In this document: in pieces, positions 27,065-34,335 of the stretch
Layout of the letters: the number at the start of each line of letters is the position of its first letter
Numbering within the stretch: position 1 is the first letter of the stretch
NCBI GenBank assembly: GCA_963649395.1
Contig: CAVJHW010000001.1
Span: forward strand, 241-64,240
Source: Coriobacteriaceae bacterium
Lineage (GTDB): Bacteria > Bacillota > Clostridia > Lachnospirales > Lachnospiraceae
Length of the DNA stretch: 64,000 bases
Reading direction: 5' to 3'
Notes under the pieces: generated by a model
What the model saw: only the letters and a program-made list of their open reading frames with translations
Databases searched by the model: none
What the model was told of the DNA's origin: nothing
Position numbers and translations under genes: made by a program

Positions 27065-28198
27065 TTGGTTTCTTCACGAATCGTATGTAATATGATGAAT
27101 GAGCTGCATGAGATTACCAGAACAGAGATCAGCCTCTGGGACAAGAAGGGTACCTTGCTTGTATCCACAGATCCGGAAGAGAAGGGAGAAAGGTCGGAGA
27201 ATCAGGAAAAGCGGATGATACAGGAAATGCAGGAATTTCTCGCTTCCTCTGCGGATAGTCAGGTGCTGCAGAATCGGCATTTTTTCAAGATATACAAGGA
27301 AGAGACCGTGGCATATCTCCTGGTGACCCGGGGAAATGATGCTTATCTGACCGGTCGAATTGCCGTCAGCGAGATCCGGAACCTCCTGTTGGCCAGCCGG
27401 GTACGCCTGGATAAGGACCATTTTATGCAAGAGCTCTTATCCGGTCAATTGCAAGAAAGGGATCTGAGGGAGAAGGCGGGAAAGCTTCGCATCGAGGAGA
27501 GGACCAAACGAGCCCTTTATGTGGCTCGAACCAAGGAAGAGAAGGATGCGGCAGCCCTGGAAACGATTCGGATGCTATTCGGAGCGGAGACAGGGTATTT
27601 TGTGGTGGAGATGGATGACCATCATATCGTCCTGGTGGGGGAATTGAAGGGGAAGGAGCCGGAGATCCAGCTGCAGCAAACGGCCCACACCCTGGTGGAT
27701 ACCCTGAATATGGAGGCTATGTCCTCCGTGCGGGTGGCTTACGGGGCACCGGCCCAGACGCTGAGAGATCTTCCCCGTGCCTACCAGGAGGCCAGGATGG
27801 CTTTGGAGGTGGGGCGAATCTTCTATTCCGACCGGAAGGTCATTTCTTATGAGAATCTGGGGCTTGGCAGGCTGATCTACCAGCTTCCCCAGCCCCTGTG
27901 TCAATTATTTCTGCAGGAAACCCTCAAGGGCAAGACTCTGGCAGATCTGGATGAGGAGACCTTGACCATTATCCGTCGTTTTTTTGAAAATAATCTGAAT
28001 ATCTCGGAGACGGCCAGACAGCTCTATCTCCATCGCAATACTTTGGTTTATCGACTGGAGAAGATTGAGAAGCAGCTGGGACTGGACATCCGCCGCTTCG
28101 AGGAAGCTCTGACTCTGAAAATCGCTATGATGGTAGAAAGCTACCTGAAAGATATAAGGGAGAATCCCGGATCTACAACGAAGGAGGAAACAAAATGA
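27065..28198 (+). CDS. CdaR/PucR-family transcriptional regulator
   Basis: GGDEF-like middle region and C-terminal [26 protein letters not shown]. Confidence 0.88.
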
Positions 28199-30480
28199 TT
28201 CAGTTGTTTAACAGCGGTGCATACCTGGTGGATGGGAATCAGGTGATTCCGGCAGATGCCGATGCCGCAGCTAAGCTGCAGGCAGCAGCAGGGGTCAGCC
28301 CCAGCCCGGAGGAGGCCAGGAAGAATACCATTGCCTACGGAATTCTGGAGAGTCACAACACCTCAGGCAATATGGAGGAATTGCAGATTAAGTTCGACAA
28401 GCTGACCTCCCATGATATTACCTTTGTAGGCATTATCCAGACAGCCCGGGCTTCCGGATTGGAGAAGTTTCCGGTACCCTATGTTCTGACCAACTGTCAC
28501 AATTCCCTGTGCGCCGTGGGCGGGACCATCAATGAGGATGACCATATGTTTGGTCTGACCTGTGCCAAGAAGTACGGTGGTGTCTATGTACCGCCTCACC
28601 AGGCAGTCATCCACCAATTTGCCCGGGAAATGCTGGCAGGGGGCGGCAAGATGATTCTGGGTTCTGACTCCCATACTCGTTACGGAGCCCTGGGAACCAT
28701 GGCCATGGGCGAGGGCGGTCCGGAGCTGGTAAAACAGCTGCTGAACAAGACCTATGACATCTCCATGCCTGGGGTGGTTGGCATCTATCTGACCGGTGCT
28801 CCCCTTCCGGGAGTAGGTCCCCAGGACGTGGCCTTGGCCATCATCGGGGCGGTATTTGCCAATGGATATGTGAAGAATAAGGTGATGGAGTTTGTAGGTC
28901 CCGGCGTAGCCAGCCTAAGCGCTGATTTCCGAATCGGCGTGGACGTTATGACCACAGAGACCACCTGCCTGTCCTCCATCTGGAAGACGGATCAGAAGAT
29001 CGAGGAGTTCTATGACATTCATGGCCGCAGCGAGGATTATAAGGAGCTGAATCCGGGGGCAGTGGCCTATTACGACGGCATGGTTTTGGTGGAGCTGGAC
29101 AAGATCAAACCCATGATCGCCATGCCCTTCCATCCCAGCAATACTTATACCATCGAAGAAGTGAACCAGAACCTGGGGGATATCCTGGAGGATGTGGAGA
29201 AGCGGGCTTTGGTATCTCTGGGAGGCAAGGTGCCCTATAGCCTGAAGAATAAGGTTCATAATGGAAGACTTCTGGTAGACCAGGGAATCATCGCGGGCTG
29301 TGCCGGTGGCGGCTTCGAAAATATCTGTGACGCAGCGGATATCCTGCGGGGTCACAGCATCGGATCCGACGCCTTTACCTTAAGCATATATCCCGCCAGC
29401 ACCCCCATTTACATGGAGCTGGCTAAAAATGGCATTTTGGCAGACTTGATGGAGACCGGCGCCATTGTCAAAACCGCCTTCTGCGGACCCTGCTTCGGTG
29501 CGGGGGATACCCCGGCCAACAATGCATTTTCCATCCGTCATTCTACCCGCAACTTCCCCAACCGGGAGGGCTCCAAGATCCAGAACGGTCAGATTTCTTC
29601 CGTGGCTCTTATGGACGCCCGATCCATTGCGGCTACGGCAGCCAACAAGGGTTATCTTACTCCGGCTACGGAATTTGCAGGAGAGTACAGACATCCGCTG
29701 TACCACTTTGACAGCAATATCTATGCCAACCGTGTCTTCGACAGCAAGGGGGTAGCGGATCCCTCTGTGGAGATTCAATTTGGCCCCAATATTAAGGACT
29801 GGCCGTCTATGCCCAAGCTGGCAGAGAACCTGGTCCTGAAGGTGGTATCGGAGATTCATGATCCCGTCACCACTACAGATGAACTGATCCCCTCCGGTGA
29901 GACCTCTTCCTATCGGTCTAACCCCCTGGGATTGGCAGAATTCACCCTGTCCAGAAAGGATCCGGCTTACGTAGGCCGGGCCAAGGAAGTGCAGCAGGCA
30001 GAGAAGGCTCTGGAGGAAGGCAAGAATCCGGCAGAGGCTTTGGCTGAGCTGCAGCCGGTATTGGACCGGATCACGGCAGAGGATCCCGCTGTATCCCATG
30101 AGAATCTGGGCATCGGCTCCACCATCTTTGCGGTAAAGCCCGGAGATGGCTCTGCCCGTGAGCAGGCAGCCTCCTGCCAGAAGGTTCTGGGGGGATGGGC
30201 CAATATCGCCAATGAATATGCCACCAAGCGCTATCGGTCTAACCTCATCAACTGGGGCATGCTGCCCCTGCTGATTCCCGCCGGGGATCTGCCCTTCCAA
30301 AATGGCGATTATATCTTCCTGCCCCGGATCCGCCAGGCTGTGGCAGACAAGGCAGAGACCATCACCGCCTATGTGGTCAAAGACGGCCTGCATAAGTTTG
30401 ACCTCAAGCTGGGAGACTTGACCGACGACGAGAGAGAGATCATCCTCAAGGGCTGCCTCATCAATTACTACAGAGGTTGA
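28195..30480 (+). CDS. Aconitase-family hydratase (YbhJ-like)
   Basis: [46 protein letters not shown] and GSAREQA motifs. Confidence 0.88.
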
Positions 30481-31267
30481 CAGGTGGGCTCATCCGAAAA
30501 GACGCGAAGGCGCTGCCCTTGGGCACAACCTGATATTCCAGTTTCTTACCTGTGCTGGGATGGTGAAAGGCTAGGCGATAAGCACAGAGAGCCAGAGCGG
30601 CAGAGGTCGAGCTCCTTGCAGCCCTGCCGCAGGCAGAAGGATTTTCTGTATTCTCGGGAGCCCTTGTCGTATCACCCCTGTCTGGGTCCGGATGGTACTT
30701 GCAATCCCCCACCAGGGGCAGGCCGGCATGAGCCAGCTGTACCCGGATCTGGTGGTGGCGTCCGGTGACCAGATGGATCTTCAACAGGGACTGATTTCGT
30801 GTAGGGTCAGTCTGCAGGCAGGTGTAGTTAAGAATTGCCTTTTTGGCTCCTTGGGTGCCTGGCTTCACCACCGCTGACCGATTCTGACGCCCGTCCCGCA
30901 GCAGATGATCGGTGAGGGTGCCTTCCTTTGCCGAAGGGATTCCGTCCACAACTGCCAGATATTCCTTGGAGAGGGAATCAGAGGAAAGCTGGGCCGACAG
31001 GGAGGCCGCAGCCTGTTTTGTTTTGGCAAAGACCAGAAGTCCCTCCACCGGCTGATCCAGCCGATGCACGACACCCAGATAAGGAAGGGCCCGATGGACG
31101 CTTGGCATCCTGGACTGGCTCAAAGACAAGTAATTCAAGAGCAGGTGCTCCAGATCCATGGCACCTGCTCCTTTGCTTTGTACAGCGACTCCGGCGGGCT
31201 TGCAGACCACCAGAAGATCGTCATCTTCATCCATAATATCCTGGGGATTTAATGTTATTCTACGCAT
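30461..31267 (-). CDS. RluA-family pseudouridine synthase
   Basis: VVCKPAG, catalytic [12 protein letters not shown], and [24 protein letters not shown]. Confidence 0.9.
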
Positions 31268-31290: not shown

Positions 31291-31322
31291 AAAAAAAAGC
31301 AACCCTGAGAGTGGGGCTGCTA
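31291..31322 (-). terminator. Intrinsic terminator of the putative large ncRNA
   Basis: Minus strand AGCAGCCC-cacucuca-GGGUUGCU-UUUUUUU. Confidence 0.8.
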
Positions 31323-31990
31323 TTCCAAGAGGACGCTCTGACAGCCGCCCTACCAAACATTCATCTGATAAAACGGCTGTCCTAGTGTTCTTCTTTATTC
31401 AATTTTAATCCTCATATCTAATGAAACTTTGTTATTGTCGGCTACTGTCCATTCCCTGCCTCGTAAGACTTCTGTCCTTTCCTATGGAATCCAAGGTTCC
31501 TCACGGAATTCACTGCTTACTTAGAAAGTTCATATGATTCTCTATATAGATAATAAAAAGTTTTCAATCATAATTCTCCCATTATGATATCCCAACCGTT
31601 CTGACTTATAACCTCTTCATGCAGATTACTTCAAATGCACTATCGAAAATAAAAGACTCATACTTTGACTACCTGTACCTGCAATTCCGACTCATAAGAA
31701 AGAAGGGCTTTTCTCTTACCGTTTCTTTACACGGTTTGAAAAATCTTCCTATTATTGTTGTGGTATGTATTCAATACGAGTGCCAGCTTCATATTACCTT
31801 TTGCTTATCATCATCTCCACTGGATGACGATCCTCTTCGCATCTTCTTCTTAAAAGGTCTCTCTAGCGGGGAACTGCTGTGCAATACCACTCTCATATTG
31901 AAGGATAGATTCTGACTGTACCATTGGACCATACCTCCTTCTTTTATTTTCCTGATCTTCTTATCAGGTTCCCCTTGTCTCTCTTGGGTT
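31291..31990 (-). ncRNA. Putative large (~700 nt) structured non-coding RNA, family unidentified
   Basis: Bounded by a promoter and a terminator, with no long ORF. Has 5'/3' end pairing, long-range G-U-rich helices and GNRA/UNCG tetraloops (see findings). Confidence 0.72.
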
Positions 31991-31996
31991 GACTTT

Positions 31997-32025
31997 ATAA
32001 TAGCAGAAGTGGGATGATTTGTCAA
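31997..32025 (-). promoter_or_regulatory. Strong sigma-A promoter for the putative ncRNA
   Basis: Minus strand TTGACA-17-TATTAT with TG extended -10 and AT-rich upstream sequence. Confidence 0.8.
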
Positions 32026-32214: not shown

Positions 32215-33330
32215 ATGCAGGGAACGTCAAGAGGAAGAGTAAGAGGGATTCTGAGCCTTTGCCTGGCAGCATCAATCTGTACGGCCTGTGGGGGAGGTGC
32301 AGCTGAGTCCCTGTCCGGAAGTGAGGCGGTGGTTTCGGAGACCAGTATTTCCACAATGGAGCAGGAGATCACTCTGCCGGAGGATCAGAAGCTGACGGTG
32401 GATTATACCGATGTCACCGGCGTAGAGGTGGAGGCGGGTGCCAGTCTGGCCGTGGTGGTAAAGGGGCTGGACAGCAGCTACTGGAAGGCAGTGAAGGAGG
32501 GAGCTGCGGCAGCCCTTGATGCGATCAATGAATATCTGGGATACAGGGGATCGGATAAGGTTCAGATGACCTTCGAGGGACCGGCCAGTGACACGGATGT
32601 GGACACTCAGATCAATACCATAGATGCCGTATTGGCAGAGAATCCCACGGCTCTTTGCCTGGCGGCCATTGATAGGAATTCCTGTCAGGCCCAGCTGGAG
32701 AGCGCCCGGGAAAGTGAGATACCGGTGGTTATGCTGGATTCCGGTGTGAAGAGTGATCTGGCGGTATCTTCCTGCCTGACGGATAATGAGGCCGCAGGGG
32801 CTTGTGCGGCGCAGAAGCTTTGCCAGGCCCTTGGAGATTCGGGAGAGATCGCAATTGTGGCACATATGAAGAATACGCAGACAAGTGCGGACCGTGTGTC
32901 AGGCTTTCGGCAGGAGCTGGATCAGAACCATCCTCAGGTTTCCGTGGCGGAGATCCTCTACGAAAATGAGGATGAGACCCTGGCCGAAGCTTTGTCTTAT
33001 CTGCTGGAAGCCTATCCCGACTTAGATGGAATCTTCTGTACCAATGAGACTATGGCGGAGGAGACTCTGGATGTTCTTGCTGATAGGGAAAGAGAGGACA
33101 TTTCATTGGTTGGCTTTGACGCAGGCAAGAAACAGATCAATGCTATCCGGGAAGGCAGGGAATATGGAAGTGTCTGCCAGAATCCTTATGGTATGGGCTA
33201 TGTCTCTGTTATGGCAGCCCTTCGGGCGGCAGCCGGACAGACGGTGGATTCCTACATTGATTCGGGCTATCAATGGATTGACCAGACCAATATAGATCTG
33301 GAGGAAAATCAGAAATATTTGTACCAATAG
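32215..33330 (+). CDS. Sugar ABC transporter substrate-binding lipoprotein (RbsB-like), orphan
   Basis: Lipobox-like CTAC; YWKAVKEGA, TDNEAAG, LVGFDAG and QNPYGMGY motifs. Confidence 0.85.
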   Translation: MQGTSRGRVRGILSLCLAASICTACGGGAAESLSGSEAVVSETSISTMEQEITLPEDQKLTVDYTDVTGVEVEAGASLAVVVKGLDSSYWKAVKEGAAAALDAINEYLGYRGSDKVQMTFEGPASDTDVDTQINTIDAVLAENPTALCLAAIDRNSCQAQLESARESEIPVVMLDSGVKSDLAVSSCLTDNEAAGACAAQKLCQALGDSGEIAIVAHMKNTQTSADRVSGFRQELDQNHPQVSVAEILYENEDETLAEALSYLLEAYPDLDGIFCTNETMAEETLDVLADREREDISLVGFDAGKKQINAIREGREYGSVCQNPYGMGYVSVMAALRAAAGQTVDSYIDSGYQWIDQTNIDLEENQKYLYQ

Positions 33331-33396: not shown

Positions 33397-34335
33397 TCAG
33401 GGTTCGGAAGAGTGCTCTTCCTGATAGATGGCGGACACCTCCTGGGACAGTTGGTCACGGATATCTGTAAGGTCAGGAAGTCCAGATGGAGAGTCGGCCG
33501 GGGCTTGGGAAGAGGAGGAGTTGGCGGCCCCAGGTCTGGCTGTGCTTCCGGAGGAAGAAGAGGCAGGGGTCGATGTTCTCATTGGGCTTTTGCCGCCCTT
33601 ACTTTGCTCTTTGTTCCCCTTTTGACCTTTCGCTTTTTTGCTTTTGCTTTTCCGTGTCCTTCTTCGCTCTTTTTTTCTTCTCCTTCTCTGGTTTCTTCTT
33701 TCTTTCCTTCTTTTTCTTCTCTGTTTCTCTTTTTCCCTTTCTCTCTCGTTCTCAGATTGCCAAAGGTCTCGATCCCGCCAGGGCTTCAGCTGGACCAAGA
33801 TGCCCAGTGCAGCCAGCAGGAGAGTCACGAGAACCAGAATGAGAGGGTGATGGAGGCCGCAGAGCTGGCAGAAGAACCAAGCGGAAGCCCAGGCTCCTCC
33901 CAAGGCTGTGGCCAGGGATACGGTGAACCGTTCCTTGACCAGGGCAAATAGGCCGGCGCAGCATCCAACCAAGATGCAGATGATAAGGGTGGTTGGATTG
34001 TGGAAGGGAAGAAGCTTCCACACAAAGAAGCCGGCAAGCCCGCCGCACAGGAAGAAGAGTCCCAATCGATAGAGGAGAAAGGCAAGAAGAGCCCATAGAA
34101 AGCCCAGCCCCAAAGCCAGGCAGACGGCTAGCTTGCCGCTATATTGCTGGTGGATTGCCAAGGCTAACCCTCCCCCTGCTCCCAGGAGAAGGCCGAAGAG
34201 AACTCCCCACAGCTTCCGCAGTCGGTAGCCGAAGAAGCAATTCAGCAAAGCCAGCACTAAGCCCCCGATCCATAGATAGCGCTGAAAGCCCTCCAGAAGA
34301 TGCAATACTTCGTAAACAGTAGATAATCTATCCAT
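33397..34335 (-). CDS. DUF4203/TM7S3-TMEM198-like membrane protein with a basic tail
   Basis: LNCFFGYRL, TALGGA, about 7 TMs and an R/K-rich C-terminus. Confidence 0.65.
   Translation of the reverse strand: MDRLSTVYEVLHLLEGFQRYLWIGGLVLALLNCFFGYRLRKLWGVLFGLLLGAGGGLALAIHQQYSGKLAVCLALGLGFLWALLAFLLYRLGLFFLCGGLAGFFVWKLLPFHNPTTLIICILVGCCAGLFALVKERFTVSLATALGGAWASAWFFCQLCGLHHPLILVLVTLLLAALGILVQLKPWRDRDLWQSENEREREKEKQRRKRRKERRNQRRRRKKERRRTRKSKSKKAKGQKGNKEQSKGGKSPMRTSTPASSSSGSTARPGAANSSSSQAPADSPSGLPDLTDIRDQLSQEVSAIYQEEHSSEP

Follow-up and report, generated by a model that had tools for sequence, protein, structure and literature searches.

What kind of gene occupies the minus strand between positions 31291 and 31990 of the DNA studied here (below, the window), a stretch of 64,000 nucleotides (nt) from a contig of the family Lachnospiraceae (CAVJHW010000001.1)? 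An earlier note had read these 700 nt as a multi-domain structured RNA that runs from its own promoter to its own terminator and belongs to no known class. This reading is supported by negative searches against Rfam, by widespread homologues and by compensatory changes in their paired strands. What the comparison of homologous loci shows is a promoter-to-terminator unit with a predicted double-pseudoknot fold, which also carries a conserved putative ribosome-binding site and start codon. We propose, at slightly better than even confidence, that the unit is a single-copy gene for a structured, trans-acting RNA of about 700 nt, which would represent a new class and would carry a ribosome-loading module at its 5' end.

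The unit is rich in A and G and contains 39.3% G+C against 55.0% in the neighbouring genes, in agreement with the earlier estimate of about 39% between GC-rich flanks. The letters of the promoter, described before as TTGACA, a 17-nt spacer and a TG-extended TATTAT, were confirmed (Table 1); they match the consensus at 11 of 12 positions and constitute the top match within the 2.2 kb scanned. From this promoter a transcript start near 31990 can be inferred, and its quality suggests high expression of the RNA. The terminator claimed at 31322-31291 proved to consist of a stem at 31321-31298 and a T-run ending at 31291. Among the homologues, a promoter of the form TTGACA / N16-18 / TGnTAnnnT lies upstream in 42 of 52, a strict hairpin-plus-T-run terminator was found in 28 of 52, and the units measure 450-1101 nt, mostly about 700. 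The minus strand of the unit folds at a z-score of -4.26 relative to dinucleotide shuffles, none of 20 shuffles being as stable, and the plus strand at -2.24. The earlier note had seen no long open reading frame (ORF), and none is conserved on either strand. A plus-strand frame of 98 amino acids (aa) was rejected as a gene, since only 39-56 aa of it are left in the closest relatives and it has no NCBIfam match.

The search for homologues suggested in the earlier note was productive. BLAST found the RNA region in 7 of the 8 other genomes of the genus (67-84% identity) and pieces of it in 2 of 28 other genera of Lachnospiraceae; the genome itself carries a single copy. Scanning for an exact pattern from the most conserved block retrieved 23 loci in named genomes, all of them Lachnospiraceae (Candidatus Scatomonas, Fusicatenibacter, Lachnospira hominis, Candidatus Egerieimonas and metagenome-assembled genomes labelled Ruminococcus or Eubacterium), and 55 loci in metagenomes; after removal of duplicates, 30 clusters at 94% identity remained. 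A covariance model, R1, was built from the first 100 nt (100 positions), the 5' half of the 5' domain. It matched in 38 of 150 other Lachnospiraceae genera, represented by one genome each (28 at E<=1e-5), and gave two weak matches, of 28.1 and 23.5 bits, in 139 genomes from other families of the order. One genome (G145) has two R1 matches, on contigs C12 and C7 (91.4 and 43.5 bits), the other listed carriers having one each. Conservation of the RNA takes the form of blocks parted by stretches variable in length and sequence, which is the pattern expected for a structured RNA. Two subgroups can be distinguished: subgroup A, to which the window belongs, has the full architecture described below, and subgroup B has the 5' domain, hairpin D and the 3' hairpin.

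Individual loci are designated below by L and a number. Duplicates were dropped, namely L011-L015 (of L006, L008, L009 and L010) and L098 and L100 (of L009 and L010), as were L109 and L123, in which the 17-mer was absent within 5 mismatches. Counts over 52 sequences were made without L050, a truncated copy, and L111, which has no convincing partner strands; the count for strand J was made without L114, and L124-L128 stand outside all counts.

The Rfam check of the region, likewise proposed before, left its novelty standing. None of the 4227 models of Rfam 15 matched at its gathering score across the 64-kb window, tRNA, riboswitch and T-box models included, or in 20 homologous loci (59,607 bases); the models tested include OLE, ROOL, GOLLD, raiA, HEARO, tmRNA, RNase P, 6S, T-box and riboswitches. 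With permissive filters and E<=10, the RNA region yielded nine noise matches, the best being a snoRNA (E 0.38, 19.8 bits against a cut-off of 40). Literature searches for an earlier description of the RNA found nothing relevant. Searches of the main text and Table S1 of the catalogue of Fremin & Bhatt (2021) gave nothing recognisable as this RNA: with the exception of row HMP2_8889, the four Fusicatenibacter candidates and the first 12 of 13 PseudoU_synth_RluA rows of Table S1 are 27-73 bp long and come from other contexts. Row HMP2_8889 is a 39-bp Coprococcus candidate with RluA-like domains within 5 kb in 52 instances; it could be a fragment of the present family, e.g. its 3' hairpin. By these searches the RNA is a previously uncatalogued family, confined to Lachnospiraceae as far as searched. 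As no Rfam model matches it and no prior description was found, we file it as a new class, which resembles OLE, ROOL and GOLLD in kind only.

A fold of the 5' domain is supported by covariation. Here helices a and b are formed by strands that follow one another directly on the 3' side, and the bulge between them on the 5' side is complementary to a stretch 5 nt past helix a, giving pseudoknot c. In a plain MAFFT alignment of 29 sequences, unfitted to any structure, 92.6% of cells pair, as compared to 35-44% when the partners are slid by 1-3 columns; double changes occur in nine pairs, and the covariation score was reached by none of 500 shuffles. Helix b contributes changes on both sides in 4 of 7 pairs of this alignment, and in L036 and L008 it re-forms from a completely different set of letters. 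Helix d, which encloses a variable hairpin region, pairs in 94.1% of cells and shows double changes in 2 of its 7 pairs. For helix a and pseudoknot c the test was extended to 52 sequences: 99.4% of cells pair (25-53% with slid partners; 0 of 500 shuffles) and 9 of the 16 pairs show double changes, 6 of 10 in helix a and 3 of 6 in pseudoknot c. The additional variation arises because the distant R1 homologues alter strands that are otherwise invariant. Pseudoknot c is paired in 100% of cells, also where it reads GTGACA/TGTCAC (L106), GTGGCG/CGTCAC (L104) or GTGATA/TATCAC (L121). Of the two hairpins that precede helix a, P0 has two pairs with compensatory changes (CTGGT/ACCAG versus CTGAT/ATCAG), and the stem of P1 is weakly supported (66.7% of cells paired). 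Pairs kept by compensatory changes were thus found, and on one strand only, as a structured RNA should have them; many G-T pairs would become A-C on the opposite strand, which fixes the strand of the RNA as minus.

RNAalifold proposes local hairpins, GTGG/CCGC and TTGC/GCAG, in place of b and c. These were rejected, being broken in L008 and L090, where b is kept, while c covaries. Two observations concern individual loci or subgroups. In subgroup B (L105-L121) the otherwise variable region enclosed by helix d contains a conserved motif, AATCGGAGA. L050, on a metagenome contig, keeps the Shine-Dalgarno sequence, the mini-ORF and the 5' strands of a, c and b, and then continues into unrelated sequence without the partner strands; this copy is either truncated or rearranged.

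Strand J is the 'internal loop' with the highest conservation in the 5' domain. Its part X is complementary to block G, with one constant mismatch, and its part Y to block F, in the right order and polarity, the partners lying about 340-420 nt downstream of J. Since F and G flank a hairpin whose tip varies in length, J:F/G would form a three-way junction and a second pseudoknot, a pairing supported less firmly than a, b, c and e. Across 30 sequences with 21 distinct combinations, 89.3% of cells are paired, a value reached by none of 1000 partner shuffles. Compensatory changes were seen in L030 and L077 (G-C to T-A), in L097 (A-T to T-A and C-G to T-A) and in L106, and matched one-base deletions in L010, L022, L031 and L033.

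For the remainder of the molecule, RNAalifold was applied to 10 genus sequences and predicted 101 pairs, of which 21 show compensatory changes. In other genera the complementarity of the long-range helix e is kept with different letters at the same relative place, although the script behind this result selects the best duplex within a search range and so leans towards pairing. In the middle domain, helices g and h as well as hairpin i each show compensatory changes within the genus. The loop of hairpin D, GT[AG]AAGAA (GTRAAGAA), is kept in both subgroups, the divergent B included. A 3' hairpin of the AGCCGTT...AGCGGCT type is present even in subgroup B; in other genera the equivalent of 31381-31340 is followed by a T-run and would act as the terminator. 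No pairing partner was identified for the conserved block H. By eye, this block has ATTGAATA in common with the 3' strand of helix a and the tail after it (31766-31775); as an alternative, the 5' strand of helix a could therefore pair with block H.

Six pairings had been listed in the earlier note and offered for a covariation check. All of them exist as letters in the window, and three stood the check. The core of the long-range helix (31755-31745 with 31560-31550, here helix e) and the hairpin at 31381-31340 are conserved and covary. So does the pairing of 31890-31885 with 31765-31760, which is indeed a pseudoknot; it crosses helix a and not, as had been assumed, the GGGGAAC helix. The other three are not conserved. 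A helix supposed to close the whole molecule is absent even in the 84%-identical L002 and lies outside the conserved body. In the GGGGAAC helix the 5' partner is unconserved, and the 3' partner is X, which pairs with the distant block G. The fourth pairing conflicts with Y:F and with GTAAG/CTTAC; the UNCG hairpin described within it is not conserved either, its CTTAC pairing with GTAAG at 31520-31516.

Table 1. Features of the RNA unit and its surroundings, in window positions; RNA strands are listed from 5' to 3'.
Feature	Position	Strand	Remarks
Promoter	31997..32025	-	TTGACA (32025-32020), 17-nt spacer, TG-extended -10 TGCTATTAT = TGcTATTAT (32005-31997)
Hairpin P0	31951..31968	-	CCTGAT/ATCAGG; RNAalifold, 10 genus sequences
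Shine-Dalgarno sequence	31934..31940	-	AAGGAGG; 9 nt before start codon, about 50 nt from inferred transcript start, after P0
Hairpin P1	31918..31929	-	small; ATG (31924-31922) in loop
Mini-ORF	31850..31924	-	24 codons + stop; crosses 5' strands of a, c, b, then strand J and helix d
Helix a, 5' strand	31892..31901	-	TCAATATGAG; pairs with 31780-31771
Pseudoknot c, 5' strand	31885..31890	-	GTGGTA; bulge between helices a and b; partner 31765-31760
Helix b, 5' strand	31876..31883	-	TGC-A-CAGC, one bulged A; pairs with 31787-31781
Strand J	31859..31873	-	X TTCCCCGC (31873-31866), Y AGAGAG (31864-31859); between helices b and d
Helix d, 5' strand	31852..31858	-	ACCTTTT; partner 31802-31796; encloses variable hairpin region 31851-31803
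Helix d, 3' strand	31796..31802	-	AAAAGGT; pairs with 31858-31852
Helix b, 3' strand	31781..31787	-	GCTGGCA; partner of 31883-31876
Helix a, 3' strand	31771..31780	-	CTCGTATTGA; partner of 31901-31892
Pseudoknot c, 3' strand	31760..31765	-	TACCAC; 5 nt past helix a
Long-range helix e, 5' strand	31745..31755	-	ATAATAGGAAG; pairs with 31560-31550
Long hairpin D	31709..31743	-	loop GTAAAGAA (31730-31723); both stems covary
Middle domain	31566..31698	-	helix g 31698-31693/31610-31605; helix h 31683-31679/31624-31620; hairpin i 31589-31582/31573-31566
Long-range helix e, 3' strand	31550..31560	-	CTTTTTATTAT; partner of 31755-31745
Blocks F and G	31452..31528	-	F CTTTCT (31528-31523), G GCAGGGAA (31459-31452); flank hairpin GTAAG 31520-31516/CTTAC 31467-31463
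Conserved block H	31390..31404	-	AATTGAATAAAGAAG; single-stranded; <=3 mismatches in most subgroup A sequences
3' hairpin	31340..31381	-	G-T-rich; conserved, covaries (genus-level RNAalifold)
Intrinsic terminator	31291..31321	-	this genome's copy; G+C-rich 8-bp stem (31321-31298) + T8 ending at 31291
RluA-family pseudouridine synthase	30461..31267	-	268 aa; downstream neighbour, outside RNA; Pfam PF00849, E 1.1e-31
Aconitase	28195-30480	+	convergent with RluA-type synthase
PucR-type regulator	27065-28198	+	overlaps aconitase start (28195) by 4 nt
Periplasmic sugar-binding protein	32215-33330	+	divergent, upstream of RNA

The description of the RNA as 'non-coding' holds in so far as no long ORF is conserved; what had been overlooked is a conserved ribosome-binding site with a start codon that opens a mini-ORF. 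In 53 of 54 sequences, all except L009, the start-codon position is occupied by ATG, TTG or GTG, preceded at 8-9 nt by AAGGAGG or a similar sequence. Most sequences retain the GGAGG core, which is weakened in a minority; its G15 and G18 are invariant in 29 of 29 rows. The length of the frame varies widely: among 53 sequences, 2-3 codons were counted in 9, 6 in 1, 15 in 25, 16-18 in 3 and 24-35 in 15. Frames of 15 codons (M-x7-QYESGIA) have their stop inside the 5' strand of helix b, and those of 24-35 codons belong mostly to subgroup B, in which the peptides are alike. The copy in the window also falls in the latter range, as its usual stop has become CAG, and its 24-aa peptide has a different tail.

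The linker between P1 and helix a, 21 nt long in the window, is variable. Start codon and helix a are separated by 23 nt in 35 linkers, by 26 nt in 10 and by 29 or 20 nt in a single linker each. This puts 47 of the 52 different linkers in phase, and all 5 out of phase belong to frames already cut to 2-3 codons. Stops within the linker occur in frame in 10 of 53 sequences and in the other two frames in 21 and 17. Further downstream, the conserved 'codons' coincide with strands of helices a and b and of pseudoknot c, whose changes are compensated in the untranslated partner strands. We conclude from these patterns that ribosome binding and initiation are probably selected, that in most lineages translation probably proceeds into the core, and that the peptide is not clearly under selection.

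These observations can be combined into the following model. A near-consensus promoter would start the RNA and an intrinsic terminator would end it. Helices a and b would stack, with the bulge between them pairing with the tail after a; strand J would join F and G around their hairpin into a three-way junction; helix e would enclose the middle domain, including the long hairpin with the GTRAAGAA loop, and the G-T-rich 3' hairpin would close the molecule. The two pseudoknots would hold together a compact core; sequence and covariation support these features. P0, the strong Shine-Dalgarno sequence, the start codon and the frame of 2-35 codons would load a ribosome near the 5' end; the module may thus be a ribosome-dependent 5' stabiliser that protects the RNA from 5'-to-3' decay. 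Since the mini-ORF extends across J and the 5' strands of a, c and b, these helices and, by the footprint of the ribosome, also J would briefly be unfolded whenever the frame is translated, and the folded state would be coupled to translation. The RNA itself would act in trans, not as the leader of any one particular gene but as an abundant structured RNA, e.g. a protein-binding scaffold or an RNA-only assembly. The loop of D, block H and the J junction are obvious candidate contact sites.

The surroundings of the homologues bear on the independence of the gene. Neighbouring proteins were identified by Pfam scans of the two longest frames per side of 30 loci, and then of the 53 longest of 92 open frames. 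Subgroup A usually lies between genes for aconitase and an RluA-type synthase. The gene that follows the RNA, in the same orientation, encodes a PF00849 synthase in 22 of the 30 loci of the first set and in 5 of 24 later loci. At least 13 types of downstream gene were found, which include, besides the synthase, a GTPase, a phosphatase, a Na/Ca exchanger, an AraC regulator and DUF6273, and in L096 and L110 the downstream gene runs the opposite way. Several genera have a promoter-like element between the end of the RNA and the synthase gene. The recurring promoter and terminator, the variety of downstream genes and the separate promoter-like element before the synthase favour an independent RNA gene located in an inherited gene order.

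Several points weigh against the explanation proposed above. Expression, ends and abundance of the RNA are deduced from sequence signals, and 'trans-acting scaffold' is the default inferred for RNAs of this sort, not a finding. The shuffle controls take no account of how closely the sequences are related; the slid controls, together with the many distinct pair types, speak for a real covariation signal. For J:F/G, shuffled partners are still 85.0% paired, the variable positions being few. RNAalifold pairs F with G instead. Of the two, J:F/G is the likelier, since L030 and L077 have a C-to-A change in F with a matching change in J; the pairing of F with G could be an alternative state. Frames of 2-3 codons in 9 of 53 sequences indicate that translation past initiation is not required everywhere, and no three-base periodicity was found in the variation of the linker. 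Finally, an RluA-type synthase lies downstream in 27 of 54 loci by Pfam (26 of 54 by tblastn) and a TPR protein in 9 further loci, of subgroup B; either could mean a role in cis.

The last points lead to other explanations of the locus. It is unlikely, though conceivable, that the unit is a dual-function RNA or the mRNA of a small protein, in which a peptide of 15-30 aa (M-x7-QYESGIA in subgroup A, MD..QYVSGMA..S.R.SLY..RR in subgroup B) is functional and the structure controls its synthesis or stability or adds a function at the RNA level. The Shine-Dalgarno sequence and start codon kept in 53 of 54 sequences would fit such a role, as would the phase of the linkers (47 of 52, the five others having truncated frames), in-frame stops that are about half as common as those in the other frames (10 versus 21 and 17 of 53), and the resemblance among the 24-35-aa peptides of subgroup B. 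However, 9 of 53 sequences keep just 2-3 codons, yet their downstream nucleotide blocks are unchanged; changes of 'codons' in a, c and b are matched in non-coding partner strands and do not follow synonymous choice, and the variable linker has no third-position excess of variation. Moreover, about 500 nt of conserved structure extend past the stop codon, and the copy in the window has lost the usual stop and ends in a different peptide tail. We also think it quite unlikely that the RNA is a giant cis-acting leader, in which regulated read-through of the 3' hairpin or terminator controls the downstream RluA-family synthase; the signal might then be the synthase itself or the translational state of the cell. 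The frequency of a PF00849 synthase as the next gene (22/30 and 5/24 loci) while upstream genes vary, the co-orientation of nearly all downstream genes with the RNA, and the distance of just 23 nt between the T-run (31291) and the synthase ATG (31267) in the window all point in this direction. They are opposed by the variety of downstream genes, with TPR proteins in 9 loci and opposite orientation in L096 and L110, and by the separate promoter-like element before the synthase in several genera, to which TGGTACTAT at 31285-31277 corresponds in the window. There is no constant class of controlled genes, and no alternative anti-terminator pairing or alternative fold of the 3' hairpin was seen, no systematic search for one having been made; the order aconitase-RNA-synthase can be explained as inherited.

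Two further explanations concern the nature of the RNA itself. That it might be a diverged member of a known large class (OLE, ROOL, GOLLD, raiA, HEARO or other) missed by the models is very improbable: size, host phylum, possession of promoter and terminator and an ornate multi-helix fold are alike, but no model reached its gathering score in the 64 kb or in the 20 homologous loci, permissive filters with E up to 10 yield only noise of the snoRNA type, and the gene contexts differ. We give next to no weight to a non-functional A+T-rich spacer, or the remnant of a decayed gene or mobile element, with pairings arisen by chance. Three of the six hand-found pairings were indeed chance, but the blocks are conserved across genera whose flanking genes share about 40-60% protein identity, compensatory changes are numerous, the promoter is conserved, and the region is single-copy with no transposase nearby.

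The proposed independent RNA gene may be compared with known systems. OLE RNA has a conserved neighbourhood with oapA-type genes, and ROOL and GOLLD often occur in a phage or tRNA-cluster context. Neither setting was found here: the neighbours in the window are the RluA-type synthase, aconitase, sugar-binding protein and PucR regulator, those of the homologues are varied, Rfam detected no tRNA in the window (ARAGORN was not run), and the flanking genes are housekeeping genes. The earlier note was right that the contexts of OLE, ROOL and GOLLD are lacking. The present RNA shares with these three a size of 0.5-0.8 kb, occurrence in Firmicutes, a unit of its own, many helices, long-range pairings and pseudoknots, and absence from most genomes of the clade. 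It differs in lacking any sequence or structure match and any oapA-type, phage or tRNA context, and in its conserved ribosome-binding site with a mini-ORF overlapping the core, a feature which, to our knowledge, has not been described for OLE, ROOL or GOLLD.

Dual-function small RNAs are exemplified by RNAIII of S. aureus, which encodes delta-haemolysin, and SR1 of B. subtilis, which encodes SR1P. Like them, the present RNA is structured, has its own promoter and terminator and contains a short frame; unlike them, its frame lies inside pseudoknot strands and not in a separate hairpin region, comprises only 2-3 codons in 9 of 53 sequences, and shows no homology. In leader-peptide attenuators (erm and cat leaders, trp-type) the position of a ribosome on a short upstream frame remodels the RNA downstream. 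The likeness lies in a short frame that cannot be translated without opening particular helices downstream. What would be remodelled here, in contrast, is a 500-nt double-pseudoknot fold and not an adjacent terminator/anti-terminator pair; moreover, the downstream genes are not constant and the peptide is not conserved independently of the RNA.

A parallel for the 5' end is offered by the 5' stabilisers of Firmicutes mRNAs, such as STAB-SD and the aprE leader. STAB-SD needs no start codon, which the present RNA also conserves. As in these stabilisers, the Shine-Dalgarno sequence is conserved even where almost nothing is translated. In the hbs mRNA of B. subtilis, RNase J1 is blocked by ribosomes initiating at a strong Shine-Dalgarno site (PMC5737220); the present RNA has, similarly, a hairpin close to the 5' end followed by a strong Shine-Dalgarno sequence at the head of a long, presumably stable RNA. 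The known stabilisers, on the other hand, protect mRNAs for normal proteins, whereas here a structured RNA would be protected.

Some observations were made on the neighbouring genes. The synthase scored 150.5 bits against the NCBIfam model rluA_subfam, under the cut-off of 192.7. An extended -10-like element, TGGTACTAT (31285-31277, minus strand), lies past the RNA terminator and about 10 nt before the synthase ATG at 31267, so the synthase mRNA might be leaderless or nearly leaderless. In many relatives the aconitase gene immediately precedes the RNA in the same orientation. The window has it on the far side of the synthase gene and convergent with it, a placement that points to a local rearrangement in this lineage. 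On the other side, a 312-aa ORF (33397-34335, minus strand) has an extremely A-rich strand, the plus-strand AT skew being -0.65 to -0.77 at 33500-33799. Its Pfam matches are weak or sub-threshold only (a TM7S3/TM198-like domain and the K-rich tail of Rrn6); the product resembles a membrane protein whose tail is rich in lysine.

The proposed RNA gene may have a further meaning, which we put forward tentatively and with more doubt than belief: the family might be a new double-pseudoknotted class built for ribosome engagement, a translation-gated riboregulator or a ribosome-associated RNA. If this were true, the fixed, phase-kept start would place a ribosome before the core and drive it through both pseudoknots, and the folded, active state would report or respond to the translational capacity of the cell. 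When folded, the RNA might serve as an RNA-protein scaffold or form a multimeric assembly like those recently seen for ROOL, GOLLD and OLE, on which cryo-electron microscopy work exists (PMC12286853). The architecture is testable, as it comprises two pseudoknots, a three-way junction over about 400 nt, an invariant hairpin loop and a built-in link to translation; cultured carriers exist, and the alignments could be the starting point of a covariance model for annotating genomes. Very few classes of large ornate bacterial RNAs are known, each of which has yielded new RNA biology and structures. Between about one fifth and one quarter of the sampled genera of Lachnospiraceae carry the present RNA, among them those of the gut commensals Fusicatenibacter and Lachnospira.

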